Assembly (NCBI GenBank): GCA_029211095.1
Contig: JARGFS010000001.1
Coordinates: 851-64,850, forward strand
Source of the DNA: a bacterium
Lineage (GTDB): Bacteria; Zixibacteria; MSB-5A5; GN15; FEB-12
Length of the DNA: 64,000 bases
Reading direction: 5' to 3'
Both the position numbers and the translations under genes were made by a program. The notes beneath the pieces were generated by a model. It saw nothing but the letters and a program-made list of their open reading frames with translations. It had not been told where the DNA came from and did not search any database. Below, one piece after another: positions 3 through 45,584 of this stretch (positions within the stretch are counted from its first letter, which is position 1; each line of letters begins with the position of its first letter).

Positions 3-560
3 CGGGAGTTTTTTGTAGTCGCGCTCGCTTTCCTTGTTCTAAATGCGCTTTACAGCCTCTGGCTTAAGCATGGTGTGATAATTGATGTCATGAGCATTTC
101 CATCAGTTTTGTACTGAGAGCCTACGCCGGTGCCGTAGCTATCAGCGTTCCGGCTTCCAAATGGCTGCTGCTCAATACACTATTTTTGGCCCTGTTTTTG
201 GCTCTCGGCAAAAGGCGGCACGAGATTCTCCTGTTGGAAGAGAACGCAATTGACCACCGGAAGATTCTTGACCGGTACTCCCCCTACCTGCTGGACCAAA
301 TGATAGGGGTGGTGACAGCTTCGGTAGTCGTCATGTACATGCTCTATACACTGTCTACCGAAGTATCCGAAAAACTGAATACGGAGAATCTGTTTGTTAC
401 TATTCCGTTTGTTGTCTACGGGATATTCAGATACTTGTACCTCATTCATAAGGAAGAGAAGGGCGGCTCACCAACCAGTGTCCTGATAAGCGATACGCCG
501 ATCCTGATCGATGTTATCCTCTGGATCATGTCTGTTTTCGCCGTTCTCTATGTGCTCTGA
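3..560 (+). CDS. UbiA-family polyprenyl-phosphate phosphoribosyltransferase (Rv3806c / DPPR-synthase-like); 5' end lies outside the window
   Basis: The frame is open from nt 3 (REFFVVALAFLVLNALYSLWLKH... precedes the GTG at 75 used by the ORF track). The C-terminal half matches my recollection of M. tuberculosis Rv3806c (LKH..V.D/E, LRA.AG.VA..VP.SKW.LL, GKR..E, F/LRY near the C-terminus). It has several TM helices. TGA stop at 558-560. Confidence 0.7.
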   Translation, partial: REFFVVALAFLVLNALYSLWLKHGVIIDVMSISISFVLRAYAGAVAISVPASKWLLLNTLFLALFLALGKRRHEILLLEENAIDHRKILDRYSPYLLDQMIGVVTASVVVMYMLYTLSTEVSEKLNTENLFVTIPFVVYGIFRYLYLIHKEEKGGSPTSVLISDTPILIDVILWIMSVFAVLYVL

Positions 561-2908: not shown

Positions 2909-2951
2909 ATCTGCCAACTTTCCAGTTTTTCTTCAATTATGCCAGTAGCCA

Positions 2952-2981
2952 GTAGGTCGAAATCCCCTTGCGGGTTTCGAC
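2952..2981 (+). repeat. REP-like palindrome, GTAG + GTCGAAA(T)CCC-loop-GGGTTTCGAC
   Basis: Reads gtag gtcgaaatcccc ttgc gggtttcgac. Same family as 24265-24294 and 62747-62773. Confidence 0.7.
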
Positions 2982-3002
2982 ATTAGTGCTGGAATTTCAG
3001 GC

Positions 3003-3035
3003 GTCAAAACCCTCTGACGAGGGATTTTGACCTAC
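3003..3035 (-). repeat. REP-like palindrome (GTCAAAACCCTC variant), inverted relative to 2952-2981
   Basis: The plus strand reads gtcaaaaccctc tgac gagggattttgac ctac, a 12-bp perfect stem. CTAC is GTAG on the minus strand. Confidence 0.7.
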
Positions 3036-3067
3036 AACTACAACAACAACTACAACGACAACTAACG
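3032..3067. repeat. hexanucleotide microsatellite (CTACAA-like x6)
   Basis: ctacaa ctacaa caacaa ctacaa cgacaa ctaacg, starting at the CTAC tail of the preceding palindrome. Confidence 0.8.
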
Positions 3068-3135
3068 ATTCAATAAGTTGCTATTCATATCAGGGGCTGA
3101 GTATATCCATATTACGGCCCAATGTCAACTGCTCC

Positions 3136-3321
3136 CTATTCATAAGACAGCAATCCGGTTCCAATCCCGACATCCAGAATTTTCAACCGGTCAGGATTGC
3201 CTGCCAGCCTCTCTATCTCCGACAGAACATCGTAGTAGCCGATAAACGGAAATTCGGTGGTATCATCCTTCATCCCGTCATCGTAGGAGGCGGCCCATTT
3301 GTCAAAATCAGAGTCTTTCAT
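3136..3321 (-). pseudogene. N-terminal remnant of a class I SAM-dependent methyltransferase
   Basis: The 61-aa ORF ends with TAG just after SAM motif I (KILDVGIGTGLLSYE*). The roughly 100+ residues of the Rossmann fold expected after motif I are absent, and no frame continues coding downstream. The remnant abuts the REP pair. Confidence 0.5.
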
Positions 3322-3438
3322 CTTATTTGAATATAGCTACAATCGGACGTTCCAATCAAGCTGGAATTATGACTCCCCTGCTGCAAAATCTGGCTTTGGC
3401 TCGTTGCCTCGCGGTCCGCATTGTGTTATACATTAAGG

Positions 3439-4494
3439 ATGGAAGATAAGCGTAAGGAAGCGTCTATCAAGCTCACGGCCGAAGTCAGCTGCGCCGGTTG
3501 AGCTTCAAAACTCTCGCCAGCGGTGCTGGCCGAAGCATTAAAAAATCTGCCGGCTTCATCCGACCCCAACCTTCTGGTTGGGTTCAACAAGGCTGACGAT
3601 GCCGGGGTCTACAAGATCAGCGACAGCATGGCGCTGGTCCAGACGCTGGACTTTTTTCCACCGATAGTCGATGACCCGTACTATTTCGGTCAGATTGCAG
3701 CGGCTAACGCCCTCAGCGATGTATACGCAATGGGCGGGCGTCCGTTGACGGCCTTGAACATTGTCGGATTTCCGGTCAGCAGCATGCCTCCCTCGGTTCT
3801 CAACGATATCCTTCGGGGGGGCTGTGAGAAGATAGAGGAAGCAGGCGCGGTTGTTGTTGGCGGTCACTCGATCAACGACAAGGAGCTGAAATACGGTGTC
3901 TCGGTAACCGGCCTAATTGATCCTGCCAGAGTAATCCGCAACGATGGAGCCAGGGTTGGCGACATACTCTTCCTTACCAAGCCACTCGGGACAGGTCTGA
4001 TAACCACCGGGATCAAGCGTGGAGTTGTTGAAAGTGAGTTGATTGAATTGGTCACGTTTCAGATGGCCGAGCTAAATAGAACGGCGGCCGAATTGATGAT
4101 CCGTTTTGAGGCTCGCGCCGCCACGGACATCACCGGATTCGGATTGGCCGGTCACGCTTATGAAATGGCCGACGGATCAGGTGTGACGATTGAATTCCGG
4201 GCCAACAGTCTGCCAAAGCTGCCCAGGGCACTGGAACTGGCCGAAGCCGGGATGATTCCAGGGGGCGGAAATGCCAACCTGAATTATTTGTCAGACAAAA
4301 TTGAAATTGCTCCGACGATCAATAAGAACATAGTCACCCTTGTTTTTGACCCTCAGACTTCGGGCGGCATATTGATAGCTATTGATGCCAGCCGGGCGGA
4401 TGAATTTGAAGCAGAATTGAAAGAGAAACTTCCAAATGCGGCGCGGATTGGACAGGTGGTTGAAAAACGCGCCACAGCTTTGATCTTAAACTGA
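3439..4494 (+). CDS. selD: selenide, water dikinase SelD (selenophosphate synthetase), selenocysteine-containing; TGA 3499-3501 read as Sec
   Basis: The ORF-track body (3523-4494) has SelD motifs (DDAGVY, DFFPPIVDDPY.FG.IAA.NALSDVYAMGG.P, GGHS). Upstream in the same frame: ATG 3439 MEDKRKEASIKLTAEVSCAG-TGA-ASKLSPAVL. This aligns residue for residue with E. coli [20 protein letters not shown], placing the TGA at Cys17. A hairpin lies downstream of the TGA. Confidence 0.85.
3502..3536 (+). promoter_or_regulatory. putative bacterial SECIS element of selD
   Basis: Inner hairpin GCCAGC-GGU-GCUGGC (3516-3530) starts 15 nt after the UGA. Its apical GGU lies 21-23 nt after the UGA, comparable to the fdhF SECIS apical GGUC. 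An outer GCUUC/GAAGC pairing is possible (3502-3506 with 3532-3536). Confidence 0.55.
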
Positions 4495-4503
4495 TGGGGA
4501 TAT

Positions 4504-6618
4504 ATGAGACTTAGCAATGCAAACCGGAAGCGTTTGTATTTGGTCGCCACGATTGCGCTTGTGATCGGCGGTGTCCTCTTTTGGATGTCGGACCTGACCA
4601 GTGACCCACCCATGTACTACTCCGGGTTGGGACAATCTCTTTCAACAGACCCGGCCCAATATGTGCATCATGCCCGAAACAAAACTCTGTTCGATGAATT
4701 TGACCCGTTTGATTATCCCCGCTGGACTGTCTATCAGCATTCAATAATCTCCCTTTTCAGCTACATCTGGTTTGAGATTGCCGGTGTTTCGGCCAAACAG
4801 GCGGCTGTTGTGGGAGTGCTGGTCTCGTTTCTCTCATTGCTGTTCCTGCTTTTGGCCGTCTATCGCTACCACTCCGGCTGGGTGAGCGCGCTCATTGCGT
4901 TCTGTTTTGTCTCGAATGTGACCCTGATCACCTATGGCCGCCTGACCTATCTTGAGAATGGCTTACTGCTGATTGCCTCCGTTATTTTCTGGGTCTATTC
5001 CCGCTGGGGAGAGAAACTATGGGGCCTCCTGTTGGCAGGAGCGTTGGCCGCCGCGGCCACACTCACCGGCAAGCTCTTTGGAGCCTTGTTGCTGCCTGCC
5101 CTGTTACTGACCGTTTTTTTCTCCGCCGAGCGGCGCCGCCTGGTGATGGCCATCTCCACGGCTGCTTCGTTTGCCCTGACGACTGTTTTGCTGGTCCTGA
5201 TTCTCTATGGAACAGATTTTTCCGCCGCCCTGGCCTACATTACTGAACAGTCCTATGGCCTTCGTGGTTACCCGGCCGGGCTCGCTTCGCCGCTGAGTTT
5301 TGTAGAACATCTGATTTCGTACGGATTCTCAAATCGTCTCTTCTACCTCGATCCGGACATACTGGTTTTCATGGTTGCTTCAATAGTTATTTTTGCAGTC
5401 GTCCGACTCAACGGTTTTCGCTTCAAGCGGCTTTCCGCTATTTCAAGACTGTCAATTCTGTGGACCGTGATCGCATTTCTCGGACTCATGCCGCTAAACT
5501 ATTCACCGGTCCGCTATGCCGTGATCATGCTTCCTTCGGTGATCGTTGCTTTCTTCGCTCTGTCCGACCATCTCCGCATGGCGGAGTTGTCCGCAAGTAT
5601 CAGGAGTGACTGGAAGTCAATCTCGCTTGTCGCACTCGCTTTCTGGCTTCTGGGCTATCACCTGATCGCCAATGCATTTTTCTTTAATGTCTTCCCCTCC
5701 CCCACCGCGAAAATCGTCTGGATCACCCTTCCCTTTGCAGCCCTGGCCGCATACGGAATGATGCGCCTGATTTCCAAGCGGCCACAATTGCTCTCTTCCC
5801 GAAACCTGGTGGCAATAATGGTCCTGATACTAATCATGTCGGCCACCGGCAACGGGTTCAGAATCCGCCGCCTCCATTACCTTGATCACAATTTCAACCT
5901 CATGGAAGCTAACCGTGATGTAGCCCAGATACTCAATCCGGAAGCAGTTCTTTCCGGCCCGTACGGTCCGGCGTTGACCATGGATAACGAGGTGAAATCA
6001 TTCATTCACCTCTTTGGCGTAGCCGATATAGACTCTTCTCTATTTGATCGCTATCCGATTACTCATTTGGCTGTAGATTCATCCAACTGGGCTTTGGCCG
6101 TTTCGGATTACCCGGAGCTTAGAGATTTGAAACCGGTGACTTCGTACTGGATTCGCGATTACCAGGTTGACATTTATAATATCAGTAAGGTCTTCGCAAA
6201 TCCGACAGCCAATAACTACCGGGAATCAACTTATGAACAAGCTCTGGCGGCTTATTACAAAGAGAATCCGGACAGTGCCCTCTTTGAGATTCAGAGCTTT
6301 CTCAGCGAGAATCCGGATTCCAAATCGGCAGTCATTCTCCTGATTGATTTACTTTCCGACAAGCAACGGTTTACCGAAGTCCAGAATGTACTCACGGCCC
6401 TGGCTAATCGGCATCCGACTGACTTCTACATTCAGGTGCAGGCCGGTCGGTTTTACCAGATACTGGCCACCCTCAGAAAAGACCAGTCCCTGCTCTCCCT
6501 GTCACAGTTCTACTATGAACGGGGAGTTGCCGCCAACCGTTTCAAAGCCAGTTATGCCTCGCAGATTTTCTCTCTCACCGCCCAGCAACTGCGCGGGGCA
6601 AATCCCCAATCTCCATAA
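4504..6618 (+). CDS. polytopic membrane protein, probable GT-C type (ArnT/PMT-like) glycosyltransferase with soluble TPR-like C-terminal domain
   Basis: 704 aa. About 12 or more hydrophobic helices over the first ~450 aa, with an N-terminal loop (SDLTSDPPMYYSG...DPAQYVHHARN) in the style of family 39/83 glycosyltransferases. The C-terminal ~230 aa are helical-repeat-like. It starts 10 nt after selD. Confidence 0.45.
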   Translation: MRLSNANRKRLYLVATIALVIGGVLFWMSDLTSDPPMYYSGLGQSLSTDPAQYVHHARNKTLFDEFDPFDYPRWTVYQHSIISLFSYIWFEIAGVSAKQAAVVGVLVSFLSLLFLLLAVYRYHSGWVSALIAFCFVSNVTLITYGRLTYLENGLLLIASVIFWVYSRWGEKLWGLLLAGALAAAATLTGKLFGALLLPALLLTVFFSAERRRLVMAISTAASFALTTVLLVLILYGTDFSAALAYITEQSYGLRGYPAGLASPLSFVEHLISYGFSNRLFYLDPDILVFMVASIVIFAVVRLNGFRFKRLSAISRLSILWTVIAFLGLMPLNYSPVRYAVIMLPSVIVAFFALSDHLRMAELSASIRSDWKSISLVALAFWLLGYHLIANAFFFNVFPSPTAKIVWITLPFAALAAYGMMRLISKRPQLLSSRNLVAIMVLILIMSATGNGFRIRRLHYLDHNFNLMEANRDVAQILNPEAVLSGPYGPALTMDNEVKSFIHLFGVADIDSSLFDRYPITHLAVDSSNWALAVSDYPELRDLKPVTSYWIRDYQVDIYNISKVFANPTANNYRESTYEQALAAYYKENPDSALFEIQSFLSENPDSKSAVILLIDLLSDKQRFTEVQNVLTALANRHPTDFYIQVQAGRFYQILATLRKDQSLLSLSQFYYERGVAANRFKASYASQIFSLTAQQLRGANPQSP

Positions 6619-38012: not shown

Positions 38013-38056
38013 TATTGTTCAATAAAGTAAAAACTTAAATGGTTTTGGGAGGAACT

Positions 38057-39850
38057 ATGTCCAATCAATTCAAACTGCTGGCGGTTCTATTCGCCGTTCT
38101 ATTTGCATTCAGTTTTATCGGTATCGGTTGCAGTGAGGATGGACCAACCGGTGGAACAGACACCCTTGATACTACCGGCGGGGGGGACGGAGGAGGCGGA
38201 GGGTCTCTGACCAGTGACTCCCTTGCTGATTCCATAGCTAAGGCGGCCAACGATGAACTAGCTGATTTGTTGAACGACATGATCAACAATACTCTCAACA
38301 ATCCGGACACCTCTTTCCGTCCGGATGATCTTGATTTCACCGGGATTCACGATATGTATCAAAAGGCATTGAGCTATAGTCCCGAACATTCCAATGCAAA
38401 GTTTGGTGCCGCCTTCACCGGGATGATGCTCTTTTTGCAGTACCCGGCATTGAACGACCTGATTGACGAGATAAAAGACGTGGCTGACACCGGTCTCTTT
38501 TATCCAACCAAGATGCTGCCCGGAATTGGGATGGGGGGGGATTTGGCTCCGGATGGCGTTCCTCTTACTACCTCCGGTTTGTACGGTATCTTTCCGGACT
38601 TCACAAAACTGGACCACCTGACTATGGCTGCGGCCGTAACCGGACCCAAAGTTAGTGAACTTCAGGACATACTTGAAGCCGACCTTCTGCCCAGAATCAC
38701 GGAGGCCATTTCATATCTCGATGACCTGATTGCTGATCCCGGCTTTGTCTTTTATATCACTCCGCAGATGCAGGGAGACCCCGGGGCTGAAGCGATTGAG
38801 ATCGACAATACCGACTTCCATCTCTTCCGGGCTGTCCTGCACGCTTTGCGGGCATCGTTGAACATATTTTTCTCACGCAATCTTGATCTGGTTTCGTACG
38901 ATGTTGCCGGACTTGAGAATGCGATCCAGCAGAACAGTGACTTTTTGGGACTTCGGACCGGGACTTATATGGTCGACGCCAAGGCGGACATTATCGCGGC
39001 GGCCAACGGCGCTGTTGGGGTGCTTCAGGGGTTGATCGATGAGGTGGACTCAGGAGAATTGCAAGAGGATGATCTCATTCCGGCTTACGCCAGTGATCGG
39101 GATGACTATGTCCTGGCCCGAGATTCGTTGCCGTTTTACGTGGACTACTTCAATGGCGCCAAAGATCTCATGATCAAGTGGACCGAGTGGGATTGCTTTT
39201 ATTATGATCCCGGGTCTGGTTGGTATTATTACAATTGCACCACTTACACCGACTCATTCATTGAGAATATTGACGTGAGTAAGTTTTTTGACGATCCGGT
39301 AACAAATCCAAAGCTCCTTCTGCCGGATTACTATTTCAGTATGAGCCCGTTGCCAAACTATGCTCAGGACTACGCCGATGCGCATTGGGATGAAACTCGA
39401 TATTGGGATAACATTAAGTCAATTTTTGGAGCGGCCGATGAGGCGGCTCTGCAGGACTCAGTTGCTGCGTACAACTACTATGGCTACTACAGCCTTCCAA
39501 CTGTCGGTTCCGCTCAGTTTTATGATGCGCTGATTAATCGGCCGACGGCTGATCAATTTGTGTTCGGTTGGGATGATGTTACATCTTACAATTGGGGCAG
39601 TAAGAACCTGTATTACTACTCGTCCAATCACAGATATGATTACCAGAGGACCAGGTGGGATGACTATTGGGTTTCTTCCTGCTACGGCTGGACGGCCAAT
39701 AGCTATGCCGAGTGGATATTCCCCAATCCGACCCTCAATGGACTGCTCCCCAATATGACTTCGGACCGTATTAAAGATATGATTCTATCTGATCCCTTGG
39801 ATTGGGAGAAAGAAGGGTGCGATACGGTGAGCATTGAGGACATTCTTTAA
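38057..39850 (+). CDS. hypothetical lipoprotein, Gly-rich linker, Tyr/Trp-rich C-terminal half
   Basis: I prefer ATG 38057, which is preceded by GGGAGG. MSNQFKLLAVLFAVLFAFSFIGIGC is a signal plus lipobox. The gene contains G7 (38180-38186) and G8 (38533-38540) tracts. No family recognised. Confidence 0.6.
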   Translation: MSNQFKLLAVLFAVLFAFSFIGIGCSEDGPTGGTDTLDTTGGGDGGGGGSLTSDSLADSIAKAANDELADLLNDMINNTLNNPDTSFRPDDLDFTGIHDMYQKALSYSPEHSNAKFGAAFTGMMLFLQYPALNDLIDEIKDVADTGLFYPTKMLPGIGMGGDLAPDGVPLTTSGLYGIFPDFTKLDHLTMAAAVTGPKVSELQDILEADLLPRITEAISYLDDLIADPGFVFYITPQMQGDPGAEAIEIDNTDFHLFRAVLHALRASLNIFFSRNLDLVSYDVAGLENAIQQNSDFLGLRTGTYMVDAKADIIAAANGAVGVLQGLIDEVDSGELQEDDLIPAYASDRDDYVLARDSLPFYVDYFNGAKDLMIKWTEWDCFYYDPGSGWYYYNCTTYTDSFIENIDVSKFFDDPVTNPKLLLPDYYFSMSPLPNYAQDYADAHWDETRYWDNIKSIFGAADEAALQDSVAAYNYYGYYSLPTVGSAQFYDALINRPTADQFVFGWDDVTSYNWGSKNLYYYSSNHRYDYQRTRWDDYWVSSCYGWTANSYAEWIFPNPTLNGLLPNMTSDRIKDMILSDPLDWEKEGCDTVSIEDIL

Positions 39851-39904
39851 CGGTATGGTTCATGTAATAGATTGAGACTGAAAGAACGGATCACCTGATT
39901 AGAA

Positions 39905-39936
39905 CCGCCGACAGCAATGGCTGTCGGCGGTTTTTT
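39905..39936 (+). terminator. rho-independent terminator
   Basis: 11-bp perfect stem ccgccgacagc / gctgtcggcgg, loop aatg, followed by tttttt. Confidence 0.85.
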
Positions 39937-45095: not shown

Positions 45096-45584
45096 ATGAG
45101 TGACAAAATCTTATGGGCCCCCTGGCGCTACAAATTTATCAAGAGCAAGAAAGAGAAAGGGTGCGTGTTCTGCAACCGGATCAAGATGAAAGATACGGTC
45201 AAGAACCTGATTGTCCATCGGGGCAAGAAGGTCTGCGTAATTATGAACAAGTATCCTTACAATACCGGGCATGCGATGGTGGTACCTTACCGGCATCTCG
45301 GGCAGGTCGAGCGCATGACCCTTGAGGAGTCAACAGAGTTTTTTGAAACCACCCGTTTTGCCGTCAAAGTGATTAAGAAGGCGCTTGGTCCGGACTCCAT
45401 GAACTTGGGGATGAACCTGGGACGCATCTCCGGGGCGGGCATCCCGGGACATATTCATATGCATATTGTTCCGCGCTGGAGCGGGGATACCAATTTTATG
45501 CCGGTGGTAGGCAGGACCGAAGTCATCTCGGTTCCACTTGAACCGATCTATCGGAAGCTGGTAGAGGAGTTCTCCCGCCAATGA
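45096..45584 (+). CDS. HIT-family nucleotide hydrolase/phosphorylase (GalT/Ap4A-phosphorylase-like branch)
   Basis: PWRYKFI...CVFC (N-terminal Cys motif), NKYPYNTGHAMVVP and the histidine triad GHIHMHIVPR. I prefer ATG 45096. Confidence 0.8.
   Translation: MSDKILWAPWRYKFIKSKKEKGCVFCNRIKMKDTVKNLIVHRGKKVCVIMNKYPYNTGHAMVVPYRHLGQVERMTLEESTEFFETTRFAVKVIKKALGPDSMNLGMNLGRISGAGIPGHIHMHIVPRWSGDTNFMPVVGRTEVISVPLEPIYRKLVEEFSRQ

Follow-up and report, generated by a model that had tools for sequence, protein, structure and literature searches.

The window analysed here, a 64,000-nucleotide stretch of contig JARGFS010000001.1 (assembly GCA_029211095.1, positions 851 to 64,850), carries on its plus strand, at 3439-4494, a complete coding sequence of 351 codons plus stop for selenide, water dikinase (selenophosphate synthetase, SelD), with a predicted selenocysteine (Sec) at codon 21. 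The frame starts at an ATG (3439-3441) that opens the peptide MEDKRKEASIKLTAEVSCAG, is interrupted at codon 21 by a TGA (3499-3501, plus strand), which is its sole interruption, and resumes directly with ASKLSPAVLAEAL, after which it runs without a break to a second TGA (4492-4494, plus strand). The latter is the true stop of the gene, with the alignment to Escherichia coli SelD reaching query residue 345 of 351 and the next gene beginning at 4504. Just 3' of the first TGA lies a predicted bacterial Sec insertion sequence (SECIS) element at 3502-3536 (plus strand), made up of an outer stem pairing 3502-3506 with 3532-3536, an internal loop at 3507-3515 and an upper stem-loop at 3516-3530. A mechanical open reading frame (ORF) call had placed the gene at 3523-4494, starting at a GTG (3523-3525, plus strand) that falls inside the apical loop of this element and is not the real start. 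A sequence-only reading of the window had proposed that this call misses the beginning of a selenoprotein gene, and its positions for the GTG, the ATG and the in-frame TGA all hold.

The identity of the gene was established with Cys put at codon 21. The complete frame then scored 387.3 bits against TIGR00476 (cutoff 125; model positions 1-309 of 311) and 349.7 bits against NF002098 (cutoff 299; model positions 3-340 of 347), the two being NCBIfam SelD equivalog models with curated cutoffs, so that the alignment to the SelD family proposed for 3439-4494 is borne out. SelD chains of known structure (PDB 3u0o, 2yye and 2zau) were matched with E values from 7e-73 to 5e-61, including those of E. 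coli (3u0o, E = 7e-73) and Aquifex aeolicus (2yye, E = 1e-66). Close relatives contain the PurM-like AIRS N- and C-terminal domains (PF00586 and PF02769), and the query matches the solved SelD structures over its whole length. The E. coli protein is the same enzyme end to end (query residues 7-345 on E. coli residues 3-339), and the HMMER alignment to the N-terminus of 3u0o places query residues 7-40 on E. coli residues 3-36 without gaps. Since query residue 7 falls on E. coli residue 3 in this ungapped alignment, the TGA codon (residue 21) falls on the catalytic Cys17, as had been claimed from the sequence, and Lys24 falls on Lys20, which is kept. The SelD residues aligned with E. coli Cys17 and Lys20 are essential. 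The N-terminal glycine-rich loop with the Sec or Cys and Lys positions is present in the product only if translation starts at ATG 3439 and the TGA is read through. Judged by these similarities, the gene encodes a full-length SelD, and selenophosphate synthesis is the function predicted from its family.

The segment upstream of the TGA evolves as protein-coding sequence. Codon differences were counted pairwise among 20 Zixibacteria-type sequences over the 14 codons before the TGA. Read in the proposed frame, they show 1084 synonymous and 719 non-synonymous differences, compared with 118/1631 and 237/1615 in the other two frames. All 14 third codon positions vary, against nine first and seven second positions. 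A similar excess is seen downstream of the UGA (848 synonymous, 612 non-synonymous), and the synonymous-rich pattern is lost out of frame. The peptide IKLTAEVSCAG before the TGA is nearly invariant in this group, and the start Met aligns 20 codons before the TGA in nearly every Zixibacteria-type relative (19 codons in L015 and L016; Val in its place in L005). Upstream of the aligned Met similarity vanishes, and stops appear in some sequences. This pattern fits coding sequence, and by this comparative evidence 3439-3498 is the translated N-terminus of selD. A lack of conservation of 3439-3522 among relatives had been named as a finding that would speak against a selenoprotein; instead, the segment is conserved as protein, with synonymous-rich differences and an aligned start Met.

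A scan of public genomes, with one genome per species, yielded 80 related selD loci (given here as L numbers), which were compared at the codon of the Cys17 position. The closest locus (83% identity), like about 19 more, belongs to Candidatus Zixiibacteriota or to similarly placed metagenome-assembled genomes, which assigns the window to that lineage. The codon is TGA in 64 loci and TGT or TGC in 14, with the N-terminus lost at a contig end in the remaining two. The resulting fraction, 64 of 78 resolvable loci, comes from a sample biased toward relatives of a Sec-type protein and is not the frequency among all bacteria. All 19 Zixibacteria-type loci have the TGA, as do two further loci, L083 and L084, the former from a 3.18-Mb chromosome (CP070777.1). 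The in-frame UGA aligns with Cys in homologues and has protein-level conservation on both sides. In L083 (10001-10903 of CP070777.1) the 5' part of selD shares the TGA and the hairpin of the window, and the 3' part enters a masked stretch (a run of X in the translation), which is why the public protein is labelled partial.

The predicted SECIS element has an upper hairpin (3516-3530, plus strand) with a 6-bp stem, GCCAGC/GCUGGC, and a GGU triloop at 3522-3524, this being, by analogy, the part expected to bind SelB. The minimum free energy (MFE) fold of 3499-3548, at -13.7 kcal/mol, contains both this hairpin, which taken alone has -8.9 kcal/mol, and an outer GCUUC/GAAGC stem, the two separated by a 9-nt internal loop. 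The published model of bacterial SECIS elements describes an apical loop of 3-9 nt on a stem of 4-16 bp, a G in the first two loop positions (usually GG or GU), a spacing of 16-37 nt between UGA and loop and an MFE of -7.5 kcal/mol or lower (PMC13188914, Fig. 2A). The element of the window agrees with each of these features, having a 3-nt loop on 6 bp, 20 nt (3502-3521) between UGA and loop, the MFE of -13.7 kcal/mol over 3499-3548, and a loop that reads GGU here and GUU in most relatives, with the first G (alignment column 36) invariant. In several relatives with A-U-rich stems the upper hairpin alone reaches only -4.7 kcal/mol.

All 19 Zixibacteria-type loci have the hairpin, in an unchanged position. 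It takes the form GCCAGC-GGU-GCUGGC in the window and L001, a variant GCCGGC-GGU-GCUGGC in L008, with a G-U at alignment pair 33/41, and GCCAAA-GUU-UUUGGC in most of the other loci; a seventh stem pair (29/45) is G-C or C-G. Covariation was assessed on the 20-sequence alignment (19 distinct sequences), with the 3' partners slid by 1-3 columns as a control and with 500 shuffles. Paired cells make up 90.8% of the named structure, compared with 33-50% of the slid structures, both sides have changed at five of the 12 pairs of the whole structure, and the covariation score of 0.225 compares with at most 0.084 in the slid structures and was reached by none of the 500 shuffles. The inner helix is 94.7% paired, with both-side changes at three pairs; the changes are compensatory at pairs 34/40 and 35/39 and are GC/CG swaps at 29/45. 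RNAalifold independently predicts the 6-bp inner hairpin. The two main stem forms also differ in the protein they encode, CCA GCG GUG CUG giving Pro-Ala-Val-Leu and CCA AAG UUU UUG giving Pro-Lys-Phe-Leu. Upkeep of the stem hence needs coupled codon changes that alter amino acids, which speaks for a constraint on the RNA and is hard to explain by constraint on the protein alone. The hairpin put forward in the sequence-only reading is therefore present in the MFE fold, conserved in place, covarying and in agreement with the published model.

Across phyla, the presence of a hairpin follows the type of selD. In a simple search of the allowed zone for hairpins, the best one averaged -7.4 kcal/mol in 53 Sec-type loci and +0.4 kcal/mol in five Cys-type loci; a G in the first two loop positions was found in 49 of the 53, and no SECIS-like hairpin was found by this search in the five. 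From the U of the UGA to the start of the loop the distance is 23 nt in the Zixibacteria type and also in L017, L022, L042 and L050. In Clostridia, Planctomycetota and Anaerolineae this distance is 36 nt, and the loop sits on a GCGCAG-GUU-CUGCGC-like stem. These latter SECIS elements (L019, L024, L030, L032, L033, L044 and others) share with the window the position of the UGA, a G-U-N triloop and a stem of 6-8 bp, whereas their loop is encoded by Ala-Gln-Val-Leu and that of the Zixibacteria type by Pro-Ala/Lys-Val/Phe-Leu. Some loci of these three groups (Clostridia, Planctomycetota and Anaerolineae) have selA and selB in a cluster with selD, unlike the window.

Among prokaryotic selenoprotein families SelD ranks second in how widely it occurs (PMC13188914, PMC1794560). 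In bacteria, no selenoproteins are more widespread than SelD and FdhA (PMC1794560), and selenoprotein surveys routinely look for Sec-containing SelD (PMC12013277). The window shares with the known Sec-containing bacterial SelDs (family TIGR00476) a UGA at the catalytic position of the N-terminal Gly-rich loop and a SECIS inside the coding sequence just 3' of the UGA; it differs from them in its Candidatus Zixiibacteriota lineage and in a hairpin sequence specific to that lineage. The SelD of Haemophilus influenzae is a natural selenoprotein. So is the SelD of A. aeolicus, the source of the 2yye chain, whose motif SGCAAK aligns with AG-U-ASK of the window; the deposited PDB entries 2yye and 2zod are the depositor's construct, with Cys at the Sec position. 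E. coli SelD, with its Cys (TGY) at position 17, does not depend on recoding, whereas the window has a UGA and a SECIS. Compared with the SECIS of E. coli fdhF, the stem-loop likewise begins right after the UGA and both elements fit the bacterial SECIS consensus. Counting the U of the UGA as 1, the apical loop GGUC of fdhF occupies positions 22-25 and the GGU of the window positions 24-26, both beginning with GGU, which supports the earlier statement that the two loops lie about equally far from the UGA. The loop of the window has three nucleotides against four, its predicted fold lacks the bulged U in the upper stem, it has the 9-nt internal loop where fdhF has a nearly continuous lower helix, and sequence similarity between the two is confined to the loop.

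Taken together, these observations point to the locus being, almost certainly, a Sec-containing selD of a Candidatus Zixiibacteriota-type bacterium in which the UGA is recoded via a downstream SECIS. Translation would start at ATG 3439, and the UGA at 3499-3501, codon 21, would be decoded as Sec and not as a stop. The mRNA just 3' of it would fold into the SECIS at 3502-3536, with the GGU triloop at the tip of the upper hairpin (3516-3530). By analogy with E. coli, SelB carrying Sec-tRNA(Sec) would bind this hairpin and deliver its cargo to a ribosome with the UGA in its A site; both this binding and the insertion of Sec rather than another residue are what we infer from the arrangement. The product would be a 351-residue enzyme whose flexible N-terminal loop, Gly-Sec-Ala-Ser-Lys, bears the catalytic Sec and Lys, and translation would end at the ordinary TGA 4492-4494, which has no such hairpin.

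Several results weigh against this interpretation. The fold of the window is only modestly better than those of shuffled sequences (z = -1.8), although the proven SECIS of E. coli fdhF (K-12 sequence), folded alike, scores only z = -0.08, so that the shuffle z-score has little power and cannot discriminate. A search of 3400-3620 against all Rfam families with E up to 10 gave two chance-level matches, both 3' of the hairpin, and the whole window at gathering thresholds gave nothing relevant; because bacterial SECIS elements are short and gene-specific, this miss does not count against a SECIS here. Only three sequences, those of the window, L001 and L008, bear the compensatory changes at pairs 34/40 and 35/39, which may go back to one or two events in evolution. 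Pairing in the outer helix reaches 85.3%, and 11 of the 19 distinct sequences have its middle pair broken. The outer GCUUC/GAAGC pairing that had been suggested as an extension of the hairpin is accordingly present in the MFE fold of the window but, across relatives, appears weakly to moderately conserved and is only partly supported.

The remaining points against it concern the Sec machinery. The 64-kb window holds a single tRNA (Gln) and no tRNA-Sec was found in it, nor did ARAGORN find one in the 30 related loci and two 21-kb loci that were also scanned. Pfam scans of about 50 window ORFs gave no SelA, SelB or known selenoprotein family. In Zixibacteria-type loci selA, selB and tRNA-Sec were not found within 3 kb of selD, nor within 10 kb on two megabase-scale contigs. 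A tblastn search with E. coli SelA and SelB over the window and all loci gave no match in the window and matches only in nine non-Zixibacteria loci (L017, L031, L035, L036, L039, L045, L047, L054 and L064), where selD, selA and selB adjoin. Eight of these nine selD genes could be typed and all eight are Sec-type (L054 is untyped); the presence of selA and selB beside them links such genes to the Sec machinery in general.

The explanation that best survives beside Sec insertion, itself very unlikely, is that a standard near-cognate tRNA (Cys or Trp) reads through the UGA with no Sec machinery involved, the hairpin merely slowing termination. It draws on the fact that no Sec machinery was located in the sequence at hand (the window and the selD flanks) and on the stimulatory downstream hairpins that are known to promote read-through of stop codons in other systems. 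It does not account for a hairpin with the features of SelB-dependent SECIS elements, namely the GG or GU loop start, the spacing and the stem length (PMC13188914), for a codon at the one position where Sec is known in the SelD family, or for the nine other loci in which selA and selB stand directly beside selD, which in the eight typed loci is Sec-type with such a hairpin.

Less probable still is that the TGA is a genuine stop, with SelD starting at GTG 3523 or later and 3439-3498 being an untranslated leader or a 20-codon mini-ORF of its own. Besides the mechanical ORF call, the public record speaks for this: the 120 closest public protein entries are all of 301-331 residues, too few to hold the catalytic loop, and cover 85-93% of the query, and among the 12 whose N-termini were aligned all 12 begin after the TGA, without the catalytic loop, although full-length Sec-annotated entries may have been excluded from the protein collection, which limits how far this finding can be generalised. 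Two of the 12 are NCBI entries named 'selenide, water dikinase SelD [Candidatus Zixiibacteriota bacterium]', with 327 and 301 residues, the latter labelled partial. Nevertheless, the 14 upstream codons evolve as coding in this frame only, Cys-type homologues encode the loop continuously and GTG 3523 is not conserved, the loop being GUU in most relatives. A protein starting there would also be without the catalytic Sec and Lys, the residues aligned to Cys17 and Lys20, and would pass for a fragment or be mis-modelled. Re-initiation at GTG 3523 to give a regulated truncated isoform was likewise rejected, as the GTG is not conserved. The short public entries indicate instead that the gene is missed by ORF calling beyond the window as well. 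No exact match to the truncated SelD forms or to the neighbouring 704-residue protein described below is on record.

Equally improbable is a sequencing or assembly error, or a pseudogene formed by nonsense mutation of a TGC or TGT Cys codon. The TGA is one substitution away from either codon and the window is probably metagenome-assembled, but this TGA recurs in 64 independent assemblies belonging to many phyla, and in L083 and L084 as well, which excludes an assembly error or a private nonsense mutation; moreover, beyond this codon the gene is intact, its scores exceed the SelD equivalog cutoffs, and a conserved structured element follows the codon.

The TGA codon otherwise behaves as an ordinary stop in the window. 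It terminates eight of the 36 ORFs of at least 250 codons, selD included, so that the recoding is site-specific, as the sequence-only reading had argued from the TGA codons at 558-560 and 45582-45584, both of which do terminate ORFs. A variant genetic code that reads TGA as Trp or Gly with no recoding signal, although such codes are generally known from some uncultured bacterial lineages, is scarcely credible, given that the long ORFs ending in TGA include a Pfam-complete gcvT (its profile matched to the last position, residue 369 of 374), that window gene lengths are normal under table 11, that in no other window gene does homology extend to both sides of an in-frame TGA, and that the aligned residue in homologues is Cys and not Trp or Gly.

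With Sec insertion at the UGA as the favoured explanation, we strongly infer, because purifying selection acts on the UGA-plus-SECIS arrangement, that the organism possesses the Sec-decoding trait, with selA, selB and selC elsewhere in its genome. Whether the finding extends to the whole lineage is more finely balanced. The 19 Zixibacteria-type loci, as well as L083 and L084, carry a Sec-type selD with a lineage-specific SECIS, composed of a 6-7 bp stem and a G[G/U]U triloop that starts 23 nt after the U of the UGA. It is about an even call that Sec-SelD is universal in the Zixibacteria-type lineage and that this compact SECIS forces the coupled replacements of Ala-Val versus Lys-Phe. If so, this would be a phylum with an unrecognised Sec-decoding trait and an uncatalogued selenoproteome, in which public records truncate the gene, and the two positional SECIS classes (23 and 36 nt) within one family would point to relocation of the SECIS or to its independent origin. 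In the literature library searched, no paper discussing selenoproteins in Zixibacteria was found, only incidental mentions and author-name matches.

The locus adds nothing new to the mechanism of Sec insertion, being an ordinary member of a well-known family. Its main value concerns annotation quality, in that gene callers cut selD short in this lineage. A Sec-type selD is a reliable marker of UGA decoding as Sec, and it flags this uncultured, sediment- and groundwater-associated lineage as a selenium user. Standard gene calling may have split further genes of the lineage too, such as fdhA, hdrA and those for peroxiredoxins.

The surroundings of selD are partly shared within the group. Upstream lies icd (in the window, L002, L003, L006, L009 and L010) and downstream, in Zixibacteria-type loci, a gene for a membrane protein; L001 has no icd at this place, and two genes further upstream are conserved in it. 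The downstream gene of the window (4504-6618, plus strand) starts 10 nt after the selD stop and encodes a protein of 704 residues with at least 10 hydrophobic segments in the first 450, for which no Pfam match was found. The pair formed by selD and this gene is kept in L001, L005, L006, L008 and L010, and the two genes could be co-transcribed. On the other side, the region between selD and the divergent icd (minus strand) is unusually long at 520 nt (2918-3438) and gave no Rfam match. It contains a near-consensus sigma-70-like promoter on the minus strand (3128-3100), which probably serves icd. The AAGGA at 3435-3439 is not claimed as a Shine-Dalgarno sequence, as it abuts the ATG without a spacer.

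A screen of the 64-kb window for other TGA-interrupted frames gave only nested or antisense frames and short extensions, and no second selenoprotein gene split by a TGA. The one strong hairpin that it showed, after the TGA at 39896, looks like a terminator. This 15-bp hairpin (39901-39934), AGAACCGCCGACAGC-AATG-GCUGUCGGCGGUUUU, with -27.3 kcal/mol, lies between the ORF at 38039-39850 and purL and is probably a terminator. The listed purL start, ATG 39917, sits in its loop, and the real start of purL may lie further downstream.

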